Below the pieces are notes generated by a model. It worked only from the letters and a program-made list of their open reading frames with translations, did not search any database and had not been told where the DNA came from. From an uncultured bacterium (GTDB lineage Bacteria > Patescibacteriota > JACMRA01), in the NCBI GenBank assembly GCA_963704645.1, contig OY969926.1:224001-288000 (forward strand): 64,000 nt of DNA. The letters run 5' to 3'. The translations under genes and the position numbers were made by a program. This document shows, one piece after another, positions 10,044 through 62,889 of this stretch (positions within the stretch are counted from its first letter, which is position 1; every line of letters starts with the position of its first letter).

Positions 10044-10074
10044 CGTTCTTGTTTTAAATTAAAAAACTAGAAAA

Positions 10075-13111
<3,037 letters not shown>

Positions 13112-13194
13112 TTTTATAGATCTTTAATTTTTTTCGAACTTACACGGTTATTAAGATTTAGTATTGCTACTACTCTTACTACCGCGATTTCTTA

Positions 13195-21546: not shown

Positions 21547-23085
21547 ATGATAATTTATTGGCATAAGCACGATTTTAGATTGTTTGATAACCAGGCCTTA
21601 AACACTGCTATAGAACTTGCTAAAACTAACAACACTTTCTTTGTACCAATTTTAGGTATGGAAACCAATTTGGTCGAAAACCCAGAAACCGCTTACGAGC
21701 ATTCCTTGTTCCAACAGTTCGGATATTTCAGTAGTATTATTCCGCTGTATCAAAATTATATTCATCATGGGATTACTCCGGTTTTGTTTAATAATTCGGT
21801 TATAGAGTTACTGGAAAAAATGAAGGGTTTGTGGAAAATTACTCATTTAGTTTCATATCAAGAACACGGAACCAGCGGCACTTGGAAAAGAGACAAGCAA
21901 GTGGCCAAGTTCTGTAAAATAAATAACATTAAATGGGTTGAATTACCACCAAGCAGTATTAAAAGAGGAACTTTAAACCGAGACGAACGAGACAAAATAT
22001 TTAAAAGTTACGTTAATAGCAAAGTTTTGCCAGTTCCAAAGTTTGAGGCGGAGTCTCAAGTCAACACAAGCCCTATCGACGAAGCTTTTAGTGTTAGTAA
22101 TTCCATCATATTCGCTGAGTTTTCTAAGAAAAAGCTTGAAATTCAAAACCAATTTAGTCTGGCTGAAGTTTCGGAAAAAGAGGCATTACAAACATTGCAG
22201 AGCTTCACTAAAACTCGGTCAAAGTATTATAGGGGAGGTATTTCCAGCCCAAATTCTGCTTTAATTCACGGTTCAAGATTGTCTCAGTTTTTAACTTTCG
22301 GAAGTTTATCATTACGGTTTGTATACCATTATTTTTGGAAGGAAATTAAACAAAGTAACGATTCCAAAATTCGTTCTGGTATTTTAGCAGCTATTCAAAG
22401 ATTGCACTGGCGGGAGCATTTTATTCAAAGGCTGGAGACAGAAGCTAGCATGCCAGATAAAGCTATAAACAAAGATTTTAACGAAATTATTTATAGTAAT
22501 AGCCCAGAATTCTTTGAAAAATTTAAAACAGGAAACACAGGGGAAGTTTTAGTAGACGCTTGCATTAGATGTTTATTAAAAACAGGTTTTGTTAATTTCA
22601 GAATGAGAGCCATGTTAATTTCCTACGCCATTTTTGGCCTAGATTTAGACTGGAGACAAGTAGGGCGTTTTCTAGCCACAGTTTTTTTAGATTACGAACC
22701 AGGAATACACTGGAGCCAAGTTCAAATGCAATCGGGAATTACTGGAATTAATGTTATAAGGGTTTATTCTCCGCGCAAGCAACTTTTGGACCAAGACCCA
22801 GAATGTGTATTCGTAAAAAAATGGCTACCAGAACTAGCCGAAATTGACCCTGAAATAATAAAACAATACCCGAAGATTTCTTTATTTGATGTTACTGATG
22901 GGAAGTACCCAAACCCAGCTGTTGATTTTAAGCAAGCTTCTAAGGTTAATAAATTCAAGACTTTTGGGGTTAGGAAGGAATCGAGCAAGGATGTGGCCAA
23001 AGCTGTTTATTTGAAGCATGGCTCTAGGCGAAAGATGAGGAAGGCCAAGGTGGTGGAGAATGGTGAGACTGTGCCTTTGATGTAG
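21547..23085 (+). CDS. Cryptochrome/photolyase family protein (canonical domain order)
   Basis: YWHKHDFRLFDNQAL, SRLSQFL, NFRMRAML, FLDYEPGIHWSQ, DQDP, C-terminal KHGSRR. Confidence 0.9.
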   Translation: MIIYWHKHDFRLFDNQALNTAIELAKTNNTFFVPILGMETNLVENPETAYEHSLFQQFGYFSSIIPLYQNYIHHGITPVLFNNSVIELLEKMKGLWKITHLVSYQEHGTSGTWKRDKQVAKFCKINNIKWVELPPSSIKRGTLNRDERDKIFKSYVNSKVLPVPKFEAESQVNTSPIDEAFSVSNSIIFAEFSKKKLEIQNQFSLAEVSEKEALQTLQSFTKTRSKYYRGGISSPNSALIHGSRLSQFLTFGSLSLRFVYHYFWKEIKQSNDSKIRSGILAAIQRLHWREHFIQRLETEASMPDKAINKDFNEIIYSNSPEFFEKFKTGNTGEVLVDACIRCLLKTGFVNFRMRAMLISYAIFGLDLDWRQVGRFLATVFLDYEPGIHWSQVQMQSGITGINVIRVYSPRKQLLDQDPECVFVKKWLPELAEIDPEIIKQYPKISLFDVTDGKYPNPAVDFKQASKVNKFKTFGVRKESSKDVAKAVYLKHGSRRKMRKAKVVENGETVPLM

Positions 23086-39867: not shown

Positions 39868-40971
39868 ATGAAGGTTTTTAACTTTATGAACCCTCCAACC
39901 AACTTCACACCTAAAACCAATTCTGAGTTGTTGGCATATTGCTCGGCTATTAGACCTGTAGAATACGAAAGCAGCCGCAATAGTGTAAACGGTAAAGTTA
40001 CAATGCTTTCACCCTACATCACCGCTGGTATAATTTCCCTAGCTAAGATCAAATCGGTTATTCTTCAAAAGCACAGTCTACAGAATTCAATGAAGCTGAT
40101 TCAGGAACTGTCTTGGAGAGACTATTTTCAGTCTGTACATTTAAGCATGGGGGATGAAATATTTAAAAGTATAAAGAGAGAGCAAGAATTTGGACTTTTT
40201 GATGAAATACCAACTGCTATTTTAGAGGCAAAAACTGAGATTAAAGTTATAGATAATGCTGTTACAAAACTTTATGAAACAGGATATTTGCATAATCACG
40301 AGCGTATGTGGCTTGCAATGCTTATTTGCAATATTGCCGGAACAAAATGGCAGGTTGGGGCTAAATGGATGTATTATTATTTACTTGATGGAGATCTGGC
40401 ATCTAACACACTATCATGGCAATGGGTGGCGGGAACTTTTTCTTCTAAAAAATACTTTGCTAATCAAGAAAATCTTAATAAATACGGAAATAGCCAAGAT
40501 AGGCAATTTGGAACTATTTTAGATAAAAGCTACGAAGAGATAAGCCAAAACTCAGATGAAAAAATTGTACCAAGCTTGTTTAGTGATCGAAGTTCAATAA
40601 TTCTTGAAAATAACACAAATTATCTGGCTAGTTTTTTTGAAGAAGCCAACAAACTTGATGATCAAAACACGTGTTTTACAATAAATACAATTACACCTGA
40701 TTTGAGTGAAAAGCCCAATCCTGTTTTGGTTTTTATTGAAGATCCAGAATGGTTAATTTCCAAAAAAAGAATTGACTTTGTAGTTGCTCAAATAAAACTA
40801 ATTGCGCCAGATACAAAACTGCTGGTTGTACAAAAGAATGATGAAAATAACCAAGATTTAATTAAAAAATTACCAAAACAAGAACGACTACACCCCACTC
40901 TAACTGATTATTATCAATCTTTTTTCAAGTTTTGGAGTAAAGCCGAAAAGCTAATTATTGAGGGAAATTAA
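39868..40971 (+). CDS. Short photolyase with N-terminal FAD-binding domain (inverted-topology, NewPHL-like)
   Basis: SRN..G.VT.LSPYI at the start, GYLHNHERMW, LLDGDLASNTLSWQWVAG; no N-terminal antenna domain. Confidence 0.8.
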   Translation: MKVFNFMNPPTNFTPKTNSELLAYCSAIRPVEYESSRNSVNGKVTMLSPYITAGIISLAKIKSVILQKHSLQNSMKLIQELSWRDYFQSVHLSMGDEIFKSIKREQEFGLFDEIPTAILEAKTEIKVIDNAVTKLYETGYLHNHERMWLAMLICNIAGTKWQVGAKWMYYYLLDGDLASNTLSWQWVAGTFSSKKYFANQENLNKYGNSQDRQFGTILDKSYEEISQNSDEKIVPSLFSDRSSIILENNTNYLASFFEEANKLDDQNTCFTINTITPDLSEKPNPVLVFIEDPEWLISKKRIDFVVAQIKLIAPDTKLLVVQKNDENNQDLIKKLPKQERLHPTLTDYYQSFFKFWSKAEKLIIEGN

Positions 40972-42437
40972 GTTAAACCTATCATTTGAGATCTATTCAA
41001 CCTACCTTTTATTAACATTGCCATGCGTGGATTTTTAATAAATGTCTCTTGGTGACTTAATAGAAATTCCCAAAATTTATCTGTCCACATTTTTTCCCAA
41101 ATATAATTTTTACCGGTTGGATAATCTGACATTTTTTTAATGTAATTACCACCTGCAATGTAGGGTTTTGTTGCAAAAATTCCTCCATCAGCGTACAAGC
41201 CCATTCCCATTACATTGGCCACCATTACCCACTCGCTGGAATCTATGAACATTTCTACAAACCAAATATAGCATTGAGCTGGTTTATATTGGTTCAGGGT
41301 CATCCAATTAGCCAAAATCATTAGTCTTTCAATATGGTGACAATAGGCTAACCTATCTACTTTTTCCAAAGTGTATTTTAGTGGTAGGTTTTGGGAATAC
41401 TCGGAATCTTCAATAAAGTCACTTCTATAAAAATACTCTGGTAAATCTTTTTCTGCTTTAAAAAAATTAAGTTCTAAAAAGTTTTCGGAGTAAACATTAT
41501 CATATAAACCTTTTACCCATTCTCTCCAACCAATAATTTGCCTAACAAAACCCTCCAGGGAGTTCATTGGAATATTTTTTAAGCTGGTAACCTTATCTAA
41601 AACTTGATTTGGGGTTAGTAACCCATTGTTAAGCAAAGCTGATAGGCACGAGTGAAAAACAGTATCCGAGCTGGTGGTCATTGCATCTTCGTAATCACCA
41701 AACTTTTCTAAGTATAAATTACAAAATTGGCTTAAATATTCATCTGATTGCTTAAAGTTAACTGGCAGCCAAGAATTTTCTAGAATTTGACCGGGATTGT
41801 TTGGAAAATACTTTTTAACAACATTTACAACAATTTTATAGTGTTCAGATTCAAAAACTGTTTGTCTTTCTGGAATTAATTCATTTTTAGGTAGCTTCTT
41901 TCTATTTTCCTCATCAAAAGACCATTTCCCACCAACGGGAGTATTATCCCGCTCAACTAATATTCCTAACCTTTTACGTTGCTGAATATAAAAATCATTC
42001 ATTAGTAGTCTTTTCCCATTTTTACTAGAAACAAAGTCTGAAAACACGTGTTTTGGTGTTAAAAACATTGGACTCGGCAAAACTCTAAGCCTAATATTTA
42101 GTCTAGTACAAACATCATCTAAAAACTTGGCGAAATATTTATCGGCAATTTCACAAATTACTAATTCTTCATATTTATTAACTTGAAAAAGATGGATTAG
42201 AACCTCCTCAAAATCTCTTTTCTCCTCTAAATAATTATAAAATACCTTCTTTTTATTTTCCTCTAAATAATCTTTATATTCCCTCATTATAGTTAGAATA
42301 TAAGCTAGTTTAAACTTGTGATAATTGAATTTACTAGTTAAAAAACCAGATTCCACCATAACAAAATCTGCTTCCAAATTTAAGGATGGGTGATTCTTAA
42401 AAAGTTGATCGGCAACTATTAGGCAAAGTGAGGGCAT
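40968..42437 (-). CDS. Prokaryotic (6-4) photolyase-like protein (PhrB/CryB family), lacking the Fe-S cysteines
   Basis: DQLF, HKFK, GGKWSFDEENRK, FGDYEDAM, EGFVRQIIGWRE, HHIERLM, ATKPY..GNYIKKMSDY. Confidence 0.9.
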   Translation of the reverse strand: MPSLCLIVADQLFKNHPSLNLEADFVMVESGFLTSKFNYHKFKLAYILTIMREYKDYLEENKKKVFYNYLEEKRDFEEVLIHLFQVNKYEELVICEIADKYFAKFLDDVCTRLNIRLRVLPSPMFLTPKHVFSDFVSSKNGKRLLMNDFYIQQRKRLGILVERDNTPVGGKWSFDEENRKKLPKNELIPERQTVFESEHYKIVVNVVKKYFPNNPGQILENSWLPVNFKQSDEYLSQFCNLYLEKFGDYEDAMTTSSDTVFHSCLSALLNNGLLTPNQVLDKVTSLKNIPMNSLEGFVRQIIGWREWVKGLYDNVYSENFLELNFFKAEKDLPEYFYRSDFIEDSEYSQNLPLKYTLEKVDRLAYCHHIERLMILANWMTLNQYKPAQCYIWFVEMFIDSSEWVMVANVMGMGLYADGGIFATKPYIAGGNYIKKMSDYPTGKNYIWEKMWTDKFWEFLLSHQETFIKNPRMAMLIKGRLNRSQMIGLT

Positions 42438-58706: not shown

Positions 58707-58799
58707 ATAAAATAACAATTAGTAAGCTAAAGTATAGTTTTACTTTTGACATGAGCTTTTTTGCAAGCTAAAATAAGTTTGTTTTAAACAAAAATACAA

Positions 58800-59375
58800 A
58801 TGTCTGCAATTTTAACTTCTGGAATAATTTTATTCATAATCTCTTCAATTTACTTTATTTTAAAGCCTAAAGAAGGTTTTAACTCGGCTTTTTTAGTTAG
58901 TTTTATAACCTTAACTTCTTATTTAATTATGCTTGAAGGAAATTATGTTACTAATGATTTATATTGGACAAGATGGATAGGATACGGCATTAGCTGCTCT
59001 TTATTGGTATATGAAATCTCCAAAAAGGTTGGTCTAGATCTTTCAAAACAAATTTCAAACATTTTTCTAACTGCAATTGTAATGTTCACAGGGGCTTTGT
59101 CTTCGGTAAGTGTTAATGAATATAAATGGGCATTCTTTGCTATAAGTTCAATTGCCTTTGCTAAGCTATTATATGAAATTTACAGCACAAAGTCTAAAAA
59201 CCTTTCATCTTTAAACCCATACATTTTATTCGGATGGTGTGTTTTCCCAATTGTATTTCTATTTTCAAACGAAGGTTTAAACTTAATAACCTTGGAAACA
59301 AGCGCAATAATATATTTATTTCTAGATTTATTTACTAAGATTGTTTTCTATATACAACAGAAAATGAACAAATAA
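58800..59375 (+). CDS. Microbial rhodopsin, schizorhodopsin-like
   Basis: 7 hydrophobic segments; helix C YWTRWIGYGISCSLLVYEI; helix F GWCVFPIVF; helix G LDLFTK with retinal Lys180. Confidence 0.9.
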   Translation: MSAILTSGIILFIISSIYFILKPKEGFNSAFLVSFITLTSYLIMLEGNYVTNDLYWTRWIGYGISCSLLVYEISKKVGLDLSKQISNIFLTAIVMFTGALSSVSVNEYKWAFFAISSIAFAKLLYEIYSTKSKNLSSLNPYILFGWCVFPIVFLFSNEGLNLITLETSAIIYLFLDLFTKIVFYIQQKMNK

Positions 59376-59729: not shown

Positions 59730-60083
59730 CTAAATTTCTTCCAATTCCAACCAAAAATTATCACTTTCTGCATTTAATAAAATTAACTTTAAATTTTTAT
59801 ACTCAATCTGAGTTAAATCTTGTTTATCCCCTTTAAAATAAATATCTATAAGAACAATATCCACCAAAACATTATCAATTACAATAAGCCTAAATGCACC
59901 AAAAGGAGTTGTTAAATATAACTTAAATACATTATTTTTGCCCGAAGATGAAAGCAAACCATTCTTCCCTTGTTTGTTAATATGAAATTCAATCAACTTT
60001 TTAGATACTTGTTTTGAAAGCTTTGGTCTGTTTTTTTCTAACCTATCTAAAACTTTTTTACACGACCTAGTTATTTTAGGCAT
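59730..60083 (-). CDS. RelE/HigB-like toxin
   Basis: Basic 117 aa, GAFRLI, IYFKGDKQDLT; overlaps the upstream antitoxin. Confidence 0.65.
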   Translation of the reverse strand: MPKITRSCKKVLDRLEKNRPKLSKQVSKKLIEFHINKQGKNGLLSSSGKNNVFKLYLTTPFGAFRLIVIDNVLVDIVLIDIYFKGDKQDLTQIEYKNLKLILLNAESDNFWLELEEI

Positions 60084-60570
60084 CTAGTACTTTTTCAGTG
60101 ATATCTTCATCTTCAGTAATTTCACTTTCCCTCCATTTTACTAACTCGTAATCTATTTTATCATTAGCAGAAGTTAAATACCAAGGTGGATCATCATGAG
60201 ACAATGCAACCAGTTCTTTTCCAGATAAATTGCCATATTTACCAAGAATTAATTCAATAATAACATCTTCAATTTTACTAAAATTACTAGTTTCTAAACC
60301 ATCTTTCTGAAGCAAAATAATATTATGGTTTCCAAAAACCTCCCACAACCCTTCATCTTCACCTTTTTTAATTAAATCATTTTTATAATTATTAGGAACA
60401 GGGCCATAGGGTAAATGATAGTAAACATTTTCTGTAATTGGCTTACCTGTAACAAAATAGCTTTCAAAGTCTATAAAATACATTAATTTTAAAAGTTTCC
60501 AATAATCACAAACACCAACCTTAGAAAGGATTATTTGGGCTAACTTTAAAGATTTAGAGTTATTGGTCAT
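60076..60570 (-). CDS. SocA/Panacea (DUF4065) antitoxin
   Basis: KLLKLMYFID, PYGPVP, YG.LS..EL..LSH..PW. Confidence 0.85.
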   Translation of the reverse strand: MTNNSKSLKLAQIILSKVGVCDYWKLLKLMYFIDFESYFVTGKPITENVYYHLPYGPVPNNYKNDLIKKGEDEGLWEVFGNHNIILLQKDGLETSNFSKIEDVIIELILGKYGNLSGKELVALSHDDPPWYLTSANDKIDYELVKWRESEITEDEDITEKVLDA

Positions 60571-60765
60571 AAAAGATTTTATAATGCTTTAATTGTATCT
60601 TATTTTATGCAAAATGAAAATGTAATTTAGTTTACCCCATTATCAACTTTTGTCAAAGCTTTCTCTGGTTCATAGTTTGGACTAAATAACCTATTTATAC
60701 CTATCGTCCAACAATTGAACACAAAATTTGTTGACTCCGTTTTAGATGTCAGTTTGATTTTAAAA

Positions 60766-61188
60766 ATGTTACTTTCTTCAGAGTTACGAGCAATGGCAAT
60801 TTCTAGATTGAAAGATGCGGAGATATTGGTTAAAAATAAAAGGTATGACGGAGCTTATTATTTAGCTGGCTATGTCGTAGAATATTCTTTAAAAGCAGTA
60901 ATAGCCAAACTAATTCCACTAAAGGTATTCGGTTTCCCTTCGGTAAAGGAAGATTTTAACATCTTATCTAATTTAAGAGAGCATAATTTTGAAAAGCTTC
61001 TAGAAATTATAATGCCAATTAAAACTGATCAAACTAATTTTAAAGATAAGTTTAAAAAGGAATGGGGTGTAATTTTAGAATGGTCACCAGAGATCAGATA
61101 TAGTAAAGTAAATAAAATAACCTTGCAAGAAACTGAATTAATAATTGAAACTTGCAAAACTTTATACAATGAAATTAATACTTGGTAA
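60766..61188 (+). CDS. HEPN domain protein
   Basis: RLKDA..L, AYYLAGY.VE..LKA, HNF..L, W..E.RY. Confidence 0.8.
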   Translation: MLLSSELRAMAISRLKDAEILVKNKRYDGAYYLAGYVVEYSLKAVIAKLIPLKVFGFPSVKEDFNILSNLREHNFEKLLEIIMPIKTDQTNFKDKFKKEWGVILEWSPEIRYSKVNKITLQETELIIETCKTLYNEINTW

Positions 61189-61189
61189 T

Positions 61190-61612
61190 ATGCTTCTAAA
61201 CTTTGACTCAAAAAAATTCTTTTCCAAAGTGTTGGAAATTGAAAAATATCTTTCAAAAGAAAAGGGTGAATTTAGTTTGTTTGCTTTATTACAAAGAGAA
61301 GAAAATAAGCCTGAATGGGATTTAGTTGTTAGCTCTCGTTGGGCATATATGGATCAGTCTAAAACTTTAGATTATATAATTGGTATATTAAAGAAAAATT
61401 TAGAGCTAGAAGAAAGGTCTGCGATTAGTAGAATAGTTATTGTTGAACCTAACGACCCATTTATTAAAAATATTAATTCAGCTTTAGAAGTAAAACACAA
61501 TAAATTGTTCATAAACAGATCTGGTTTCAACGGGATAATGATAGATAATGGTGTAATCTTCACCTCTCAAAATTTAATCAAACCAAAAACCAGCAAAAAA
61601 GTTAAGGTGTAA
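61190..61612 (+). CDS. Hypothetical protein coupled to HEPN (possible degenerate nucleotidyltransferase)
   Basis: ATG 1 nt after the HEPN stop; LFAL..RE..WDLVVSS.W. Confidence 0.55.
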   Translation: MLLNFDSKKFFSKVLEIEKYLSKEKGEFSLFALLQREENKPEWDLVVSSRWAYMDQSKTLDYIIGILKKNLELEERSAISRIVIVEPNDPFIKNINSALEVKHNKLFINRSGFNGIMIDNGVIFTSQNLIKPKTSKKVKV

Positions 61613-62414: not shown

Positions 62415-62889
62415 TGGTGGAGATGGGGGGAGTCGCACCCCCGTCCAGCTGGAATATAATTAGCCAATTTTTTCAGACCGAAAACATAGTTATTTTAGTA
62501 ATTTTGTATCAAAGGAAGAAAAACAACAAACCCCGATCAATAGGCAAACAAAGTACAAGTAAACAGCGAGTGCCAAGCTGAAATACAGGGTGCATTTGGT
62601 TGTGGGTAAACTAAACAAACAGGCCTAACTATGCACAGCTAATGCTTATTTGGATATACCAAAGTAAAGTTCAACCGTTACATTATTTAATCATTGATTA
62701 AGCGTATACGGCGACTTTGTCTGGTACGCCTGAACGAACTGCAGCTAAAACTGAATCAGCATAGCTTTGTACGCGGTCCGCAAAGGAGTTAATGCTATTA
62801 TTTGCATTTATGGTTTTTTAGATGTATGGTATCACACCTCTCGGCATCAACTAATTGTCATCCAGCTGTCAATCTAAAACGGCATCCCC
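62415..62889 (-). ncRNA. ssrA: tmRNA
   Basis: 5' GGGGAUG pairs with 3' CAUCUCC-ACCA including G3-U; T-arm GGGGGUGCGACUCCCC; tag frame 62805-62698 starts ANN and ends VAVYA*. Confidence 0.95.

Follow-up and report, generated by a model that had tools for sequence, protein, structure and literature searches.

A rhodopsin gene of the schizorhodopsin clade with glycine in place of the motif phenylalanine in a Patescibacterium: a probable inward proton pump

Schizorhodopsins (SzRs) and the related AntR make up a known family of inward proton pumps, and the phenylalanine that opens their F-S-E motif was described as 'completely conserved' in both by Higuchi et al. 2021 (PMC8040798), in whose text the neutrality of the site is proposed to be essential. 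The text of the preprint of Marin et al. 2025 (10.1101/2025.10.15.682728) places this residue 'in most SzRs', and that of the November 2026 numbering paper (PMC13739731) still gives SzRs as 'FSE'. According to the preprint, most bacterial SzRs belong to one clade found chiefly in Patescibacteria, with transfers to cyanobacteria, and two of them, paSzR and psSzR, are reported there as FSE inward H+ pumps; the assayed bacterial SzRs (AntR, GSS_AntR, paSzR and psSzR), most of them from Patescibacteria, have all been described as inward H+ pumps. The rhodopsin gene considered here lies in a stretch of 64,000 nucleotides, referred to below as the window (GenBank assembly GCA_963704645.1, contig OY969926.1, positions 224,001 to 288,000), the host of which is a bacterium of the Patescibacteria, or Candidate Phyla Radiation (CPR), in line with the mainly patescibacterial distribution of bacterial SzRs in the preprint. 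On sequence and modelled fold the gene is assigned to the bacterial SzR/AntR clade, with glycine (G61) at the site of the usual phenylalanine and hence the motif G-S-E, and it probably encodes a retinal pigment that pumps protons inward, G61 being a tolerated neutral residue.

The gene is an open reading frame (ORF) of 191 codons, the ATG of which is the first start codon past an in-frame upstream stop (coordinates are collected in Table 1), and its product is a single unit with no extra domain. The helix C stretch R58, W59, I60, G61, Y62, G63, I64, S65, C66 was confirmed both in the DNA and in the translation, and the HMMER alignment sets R58, G61, S65, C66 and E72 against R82, D85, T89, T90 and D96 of bacteriorhodopsin (BR), and D176 and K180 against D212 and K216. 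The same frame, residues and BR alignment (G-S-E, with Cys at the T90 position) had been proposed in a first-pass annotation of the window, made from the sequence alone, and were confirmed by the DNA, by script and by the HMMER alignment. The protein matched the Pfam family Bac_rhodopsin with E 1.6e-18 and 67.4 bits (cut-off 24.6) and, among the sequences of solved structures, AntR with E 3e-45, SzR4 with 9.6e-28, and bacteriorhodopsin together with other type-1 chains at about 1e-8; a chance match is excluded by the Bac_rhodopsin and AntR values. The AlphaFold2 model, built on a 46-sequence alignment of the query and its relatives, has seven helices (2-21, 29-46, 57-76, 81-103, 106-129, 135-155, split by DSSP at 146/148, and 165-190), with a mean predicted local distance difference test score (pLDDT) of 94.3 and a predicted template-modelling score (pTM) of 0.88. 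In the Foldseek comparison of this model with the PDB, three AntR entries stood at the top (template-modelling score, TM, 0.95; root mean square deviation 1.6-1.7 A; 44% identity over 196 alignment columns), with SzR4 next (TM 0.88-0.92), AntR and SzR4 together filling ranks 1-6, and bacteriorhodopsins following (TM about 0.82-0.85). R58, S65, C66, D176 and K180 do not vary among the aligned relatives (46 of 46).

The wider family was sampled by a search of 5.8 billion clustered proteins, in which 132 of 337 candidates were relatives at E <= 1e-5, 120 of them being taken, and by HMMER, run exhaustively over 1.84 billion representatives, which gave 125 relatives at E <= 0.001. The resulting alignment contains the query and 146 of the 164 relatives (175-240 aa), 147 rows in total, 18 shorter or longer rows having been left out, and all trees were inferred without the alignment columns 61 and 72. 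In the 147-row tree, which was run with no xenorhodopsin or heliorhodopsin outgroup, the query is nested among bacterial SzR rows, inside starred sets (59 and 70 rows) in which FSE rows occur, and the closest titled genomes with relatives of the query are those of Patescibacteria and cyanobacteria. The query has the size of the family (~190-210 aa), the helix C Arg, Ser, Cys and Glu (R58, S65, C66, E72), the retinal Lys of helix G with an Asp four residues before it (D176 and K180; compare D184/K188 in SzR4), and an uncharged residue at the BR-D85 site, where 0 of the 147 rows are charged; the Phe of that site is the SzR feature that is absent. A heliorhodopsin identity was ruled out, Bac_rhodopsin being the only family matched at E up to 0.1 with no PF18761 match, and so was a xenorhodopsin identity, the query having G61 and D176 where xenorhodopsins have Asp (BR-D85 site) and Pro (BR-D212 site). 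Thus the schizorhodopsin/AntR membership, the replacement of F-S-E by G-S-E and the conserved Cys, all of which the first-pass annotation had put forward, are upheld by the AntR match, the fold and the tree.

The residue at position 61 proved to be variable across the 147 rows: Phe in 97, Gly in 33, Val in 8, Ile in 3, Met and Leu in 2 each, Ala and Cys in 1 each, and never a charged or strongly polar residue. Glycine is the second commonest state, and in this sample phenylalanine at the BR-D85 site is a usual, not a defining, feature of the bacterial SzR clade. The motifs themselves are distributed as FSE in 79 rows, GSE in 12 (the query included), GSV in 11, VSE and GST in 7 each, FST in 6, FSS in 4, ISE in 3, MSE and FSD in 2 each, and fourteen singletons, the E72 state being found in 104 of the rows. 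Among the matches listed, the tight group of the query consists of five GSE rows and P0005 (83-92% identity), and the nearest Phe-type relatives are P0006 (71% identity) and P0008 (65%); Val, Ile, Ala and Gly are intermixed at residue 61 among the near relatives. The quick 147-row tree requires 25 changes at this residue. In a careful 75-row tree, comprising the part around the query (70 rows) and an outgroup of five rows, 17 are needed, with nine between Gly and non-Gly states. On the latter tree the GSE label changes five times, with a single origin in 0 of 200 bootstrap trees, and monophyly of the 12 GSE rows was rejected by the approximately unbiased (AU) test (delta lnL, the log-likelihood difference, 139; p-AU 1.3e-6), the group having been set by motif, but after the first tree had been seen. 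On these trees G-S-E arose more than once; the passage from Phe (TTY) to Gly (GGN) takes two base changes with Val or Cys as one-step intermediates, and both of these states are observed. In the species-representative genomes, scanned with a pattern that admitted F or G alone at the residue-61 site, 28 SzR loci comprise 23 FSE, 2 FSD, 1 FSG, 1 GSE and 1 GST, and both Gly loci fall in the query genome's own family.

The first-pass annotation had named as refuting its reading that G-S-E be already common and characterised. Half of this is the case, G-S-E being fairly common in metagenomes by the above counts and no characterised example having been found. No described or assayed Gly-type SzR was met in the literature, of which the supplementary sequence list and tree of 10.1101/2025.10.15.682728, which may contain some, formed no part, and the main text of that preprint nowhere has the string 'GSE'. 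The basic function is probably unchanged by the Gly-type motif. The bacterial clade departs from the textbook F-S-E in that the first motif position ranges freely over uncharged residues, and the natural Gly-type SzRs offer a ready test of the published idea that charge neutrality alone matters at the site.

The functional assignment leans on mutagenesis and structure of the archaeal proteins. Inoue et al. 2020 (PMC7148096) report the SzR1 mutant F70A without significant loss of inward transport, with transport abolished in F70D and F70E. In the account of the SzR4 crystal structure (PMC8040798), the F70 side chain faces the membrane and makes no Schiff-base contact, three waters fill the space left by the F70 flip, D184 is the only counterion (D184 and K188 being the homologues of D176 and K180), and the helix C Ser, Cys and Glu are needed for transport. 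By homology to SzR1, SzR4, AntR, paSzR and psSzR, all-trans retinal would be bound to K180, D176 would serve as the sole counterion in a salt bridge with R58, and after photoisomerisation the Schiff-base proton would be released to the cytoplasmic side by way of S65, C66 and E72 of helix C, with the Schiff base then taking up a proton from outside; G61 would be a tolerated uncharged stand-in for the usual Phe at a site that needs the absence of charge rather than bulk. All the residues tied by the cited work to inward pumping (R58, S65, C66, E72, D176, K180) are kept in the query. The ratios of nonsynonymous to synonymous substitution rates (dN/dS) against the orthologues of a same-genus genome (L004) and of two syntenic metagenome contigs (L035, L036) are 0.094, 0.094 and 0.086 (dS 0.63, 0.54 and 1.03), and G61 is kept in all three; the gene is under purifying selection. 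Because the pump residues and the retinal-pocket residues known from paSzR are kept under such selection, an inward pump with a tolerated G61 is to be expected, and because F70 of SzR4 faces the membrane and SzR1 F70A still pumps, a large functional change is not. The first-pass annotation had pictured a bulky Phe next to the Schiff base, which does not agree with the published orientation of F70, and had suggested that Gly could shift colour or ion handling, which the F70A result weakens and which is kept below as a rival. Its emphasis on the glycine is partly justified: the residue departs from the textbook motif, yet it is recurrent and, as mutagenesis and structure suggest, tolerated.

Several points weigh against inward pumping with an indifferent G61. 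No experiment on any Gly-type SzR was found in the literature, and Gly differs from the assayed Ala in helix flexibility. I60 goes with G61, being present in 79% of the Gly rows versus 13% of the Phe rows of the 147-row alignment, a pairing that hints at local re-packing. Residue 72 is non-acidic in 21 of the 33 Gly rows versus 19 of the 114 others, and the Gly lineages may be drifting in function. A retinal-forming enzyme was not detected in the genome with PF15461, TIGR03753, RPE65 and a Pfam scan of 10 of 29 multi-helix ORFs, and no member of the SzR family has an established physiological role for its inward pumping. A link of G61 to the loss of the acidic residue 72, which the raw counts suggest, was considered and rejected, the phylogenetically independent-pairs test being not significant (median p 0.5) and the query keeping E72.

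The strongest competitor, which is nonetheless unlikely, is that of an SzR-type protein in which G61 and I60 enlarge a water-filled space beside the complex of the Schiff base, D176 and R58, with measurable effects on colour, on the pKa of the Schiff base, on photocycle speed or on ion handling. The loss of a whole side chain should enlarge that space, I60 co-varies with G61, and the recurrence of Gly, with nine Gly/non-Gly changes and the rejected GSE monophyly, is compatible with selection for a property; the third transmembrane helix is, moreover, the most mutation-sensitive one in SzR4 according to the text of PMC8040798. The same variability can be read the other way, since within close relatives residue 61 shifts between eight states (F, V, I, M, L, A, C, G), as under a relaxed size constraint, and the observed one-step intermediates Val and Cys fit a neutral walk, while the SzR1 F70A mutant, as reported in PMC7148096, pumps without significant loss of transport. 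Somewhat less probable still is a broader proposal, by which G61 would be no neutral replacement: with the loss of the side chain that closes off the Schiff-base region on the membrane side, G61 and I60 would give a laterally open or larger hydrated cavity with changed colour, Schiff-base pKa or ion handling, and this would have opened the way to a radiation of Gly-type patescibacterial SzRs (GSV, GST, GSS, GSH, GSI) without the cytoplasmic Glu and with a non-classical function, the G-S-E of the query being a transitional form. The Gly rows without an acidic residue 72 are, besides the 11 GSV and 7 GST, one each of GSS, GSH and GSI, and may, judged by their motifs, be candidates for a function other than that of a classical inward pump. 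Gly-type SzRs in which V, T, S, H or I replaces the Glu acceptor of position 72 were also seen at the loci L037 (GSV), L006/L034 (GST) and L041-L046 (GSS), and the proteins P0036-P0048 and P0074-P0076 are relatives of this type.

The host genome is a single contig of 1,272,640 bp with 33.4% G+C, 41 tRNAs and a marker completeness of 87%. For the 6-phosphogluconate dehydrogenase encoded in the window, the matches bearing an organism name among the best 120 were two 'Patescibacteria group bacterium', one 'candidate division SR1 bacterium' and one 'bacterium'. In its class, represented by 27 species genomes of 0.8-1.6 Mb (the class being equal to its order there), an SzR was found in three, namely its own (GSE), one of the same genus (GSE) and one of another genus (GST), and heliorhodopsin in 15. 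Two heliorhodopsins are present in the host itself, one full length and one with an insert, so that this small genome invests in three retinal proteins, which speaks for a general use of such proteins by the host and hence for the pump reading; a Patescibacterium of 1.27 Mb combines three rhodopsin genes with a carotenoid pathway. Two photolyase-family genes of the window fit a light-exposed way of life. A photosensor, or another rhodopsin that passes light signals to the cell instead of moving protons, is improbable as a reading of the gene, even though related Gly-type rows are without the cytoplasmic Glu, the heliorhodopsins of the host are possibly sensory in view of the CPR literature (in the text of PMC9166423), and the photolyase-family genes imply that the light response matters to the cell. 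The query keeps E72, S65 and C66, which are needed for transport in SzR4 as described in PMC8040798, the 191-aa protein is without an extra domain, no conserved transducer or signalling neighbour accompanies the gene, the 49-aa ORF being the only one in common with the same-genus locus, and all SzRs assayed so far have been described as pumps.

The supply of the chromophore was addressed by a genome-wide search for the blh and crt genes, which the first-pass annotation had recommended; the crt genes were found, and blh was not detected. The carotenoid cluster lies about 268 kb beyond the window and consists of crtB (SQS_PSY, E 1.4e-42, the sole SQS_PSY match in the genome), crtI (NCBIfam CrtID, 641 bits at a cut-off of 640), a lycopene cyclase in two parts, that is, two lycopene-cyclase-domain genes, and a divergent CrtR-like gene of the desaturase (hydroxylase) family. 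One polyprenyl synthase is present in the genome, and SQS_PSY was matched in 11 of the 27 genomes of the class, including all three with an SzR. Such a cluster is unusual equipment for a Patescibacterium; it adjoins genes of a V/A-type ATPase (subunit D, the c subunit and a weak match of the I subunit). For the cleavage of carotene to retinal, PF15461 (Blh/Brp) had no match in the genome, in five other SzR-bearing genomes or in the 27 genomes of the class, and none in 14 controls (0/14) either, which leaves its sensitivity unproven; TIGR03753 had no match in the genome, nor had RPE65, the control for which matched in two of 14 genomes. Nor did Pfam hmmscan find BCD in the 10 multi-helix ORFs scanned out of 29 in the range of 200-450 aa, which included five of the seven with four or more His. 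The 334-aa ORF between crtI and the cyclase halves was considered as a Blh and rejected, having no Pfam or NCBIfam match, low complexity and a single hydrophobic stretch. The earlier statement that no retinal or carotenoid genes are in the window holds for the families searched, the SQS_PSY match lying outside it and BCD, TIGR03753 and RPE65 giving none. The further suggestion that retinal may be scavenged is half right: the genome encodes a carotenoid pathway, and the carotene-cleaving step alone escaped detection. Retinal would thus be either taken from neighbouring organisms, as was proposed for the rhodopsins of Saccharibacteria by Jaffe et al. 2022 in the text of PMC9296517, or cut by an unrecognised oxygenase from home-made carotenoids. 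The pathway seems to stop one step short of retinal, which bears on the chromophore supply of reduced, probably host-dependent cells.

At its locus, the rhodopsin gene is probably monocistronic and would be transcribed alone from its own promoter-like site. This site is the best of eight in the region, a number not above that in shuffled sequences (8 vs 7.1), so that it counts as a consensus match only, and no terminator-like site was found in the rhodopsin region. Of the 13 flanking proteins, the 49-aa ORF alone has a counterpart next to a rhodopsin gene elsewhere, and this counterpart, of 71 aa, is confined to the same-genus genome (L004/L033; 49% identity over 45 aa by tblastn). The membrane protein of 269 aa encoded upstream, with a weak Bestrophin-like match (E 0.046, below the cut-off), was rejected as an operon partner, being absent beside rhodopsin elsewhere, and so were the flanking genes other than the 49-aa ORF, none of which occurs in 30 other loci (tblastn) or in L035 and L036 (blastn). 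The rhodopsin gene lies upstream of ssrA, the gene of transfer-messenger RNA (tmRNA), in the window, in L004 and in the contigs L035 and L036 (blastn), at a distance of 1.8 to 3 kb in the first, second and third and under 1 kb in L036. The backbone traced by blastn comprises 41.0-42.4 kb of the window, common to L035 and L036, about 54.6-55.4 kb, common to L035 (55.1-55.4 kb) and L036 (54.6-55.0 kb), and the rhodopsin gene, the tmRNA gene and the following DNA, common to L004, L035 and L036, with differing genes between these blocks. Genes of the toxin-antitoxin or defence type at 59730-61612, between the rhodopsin and tmRNA genes, are absent from all three. Since rhodopsin and ssrA are common to L004, L035 and L036 while the inserts differ, the rhodopsin gene holds a stable place in the chromosome next to an ssrA-linked patch that varies. 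That the gene is idle, as an apoprotein without chromophore or as one decaying after horizontal transfer into this variable island, is very hard to credit, for although no blh/brp or RPE65-type oxygenase was detected, the flanking toxin-antitoxin-type genes vary and adjoin a tmRNA gene, which is a classic site of integration, and the G+C content of the gene is 28% versus 33% for the genome, the frame is intact with dN/dS 0.09 across the orthologues at the common locus, the retinal-pocket residues are all kept, the two heliorhodopsins of the genome need retinal too, uptake of retinal from outside is documented for CPR rhodopsins in the text of PMC9296517, and the abundance of F, I, L, Y, K and N in a membrane protein should lead to a low G+C content.

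Other observations concern the remainder of the window. The tmRNA gene is long (475 nt vs a model of 374 positions), scores 49.4 bits (cut-off 47), encodes the tag peptide VPDKVAVYA according to ARAGORN, and is about 90% identical in L004 and L035. L036 lacks the whole stretch of about 42.4-54.6 kb, which holds a strain-variable giant gene of 2655 aa, and L035 lacks most of it. Neither a 16S nor a 5S gene was reported in the 64-kb window, and the rRNA genes appear to be unlinked because the 23S rRNA gene is found there without them.

Table 1. Positions of the rhodopsin gene, its motif codons and other features (window positions unless the genome is named)
Feature	Position	Strand	Remark
Schizorhodopsin-family rhodopsin gene	58800..59375	+	191 aa, seven predicted helices
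Helix C motif codons	58971..59015	+	R58 aga 58971-73; G61 gga 58980-82; S65 agc 58992-94; C66 tgc 58995-97; E72 gaa 59013-15; DNA and alignment to BR, AntR, SzR4
Helix G D176-L-F-T-K180	59325..59339	+	D176 gat 59325-27; K180 aag 59337-39; read from DNA
Sigma-70-like promoter, TTGACA-17-TAAAAT	58746..58774	+	11/12 consensus; 25 nt before ATG, in 93-nt gap
Membrane protein, 269 aa	57897-58706		upstream of rhodopsin
Small convergent ORF, 49 aa	59468..59617	-	just downstream of rhodopsin
SocA/Panacea	60076-60570		domain match; overlaps 117-aa ORF (weak RnlA-toxin-N match)
HEPN	60715-61188		domain match; overlaps 155-aa ORF
tmRNA gene (ssrA)	62415..62889	-	ARAGORN and Rfam
23S rRNA gene	10072-13112	-	3041 nt (model 2925)
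DNA photolyase with FAD_binding_7	21547-23085	+
AAA_15/AAA_21 (AbiEii-like) ATPase, 553 aa	24990-26651	-	defence-type
DPRP photolyase-related protein	40968-42437	-
ORF of 2655 aa	46642-54609	+	strain-variable
Heliorhodopsin 2, with insert	genome 359,725-360,564	-	profile match in two pieces, one 309-aa frame
Carotenoid cluster (crtB, crtI, 334-aa ORF, two lycopene-cyclase halves (crtYcd), CrtR-like)	genome 556428-561534		profile matches
Heliorhodopsin 1, full length	genome 1,095,601-1,096,368	+	PF18761 E 1.3e-74

Compared with the described systems, the query stands closest to AntR (PDB 9or2, 9ork, 9ot0), its best solved-structure match in sequence and in fold, with which it shares the length class, the R / S-C / E of helix C and the D-x3-K of helix G; AntR, an inward H+ pump according to the literature, has Phe in place of G61 and is assigned to a cyanobacterium, whereas the query comes from a Patescibacterium. 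To the same bacterial clade belong paSzR, from the patescibacterial class JACMRA01, and psSzR, from a cyanobacterium, as described in the text of 10.1101/2025.10.15.682728. The pocket residues of paSzR named there (T94, Y144, G148, W149, P153, F156, D179, F181, F186) all have kept counterparts in the query at a constant offset of 3 (T91, Y141, G145, W146, P150, F153, D176, F178, F183). Both proteins differ from the query in being F-S-E, and Pro70 of paSzR stands against S67, to judge from the residues named in that text. The Asgard archaeal SzR1 and SzR4 (PDB 7e4g) have the fold of the query and the functional residues R67, S74, C75, E81, D184 and K188, but they are 34-35% identical to it, form an archaeal clade and carry Phe at the motif site; the F70A mutant of SzR1, as published, mimics the natural small residue of the query, and Phe153 of the SzR4 type, in the sixth transmembrane helix, is reported to be replaced by Gly in bacterial SzRs (G148 in paSzR), as it is in the query (G145). 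The xenorhodopsins NsXeR and PoXeR share the function proposed for the query, that of a light-driven inward H+ pump with a single counterion, yet they belong to an unrelated lineage, in which the BR-D85 site is Asp and the BR-D212 site Pro (PMC13739731), and are functional analogues only. The type-1 rhodopsins of Saccharibacteria (SacR), described in PMC9296517, are likewise CPR rhodopsins without blh that bind externally supplied retinal; they differ in being DTS-motif outward pumps of another rhodopsin family, and their genomes are reported to be without retinal-making machinery, whereas that of the query has crtB, crtI, crtYcd and a CrtR-like gene.

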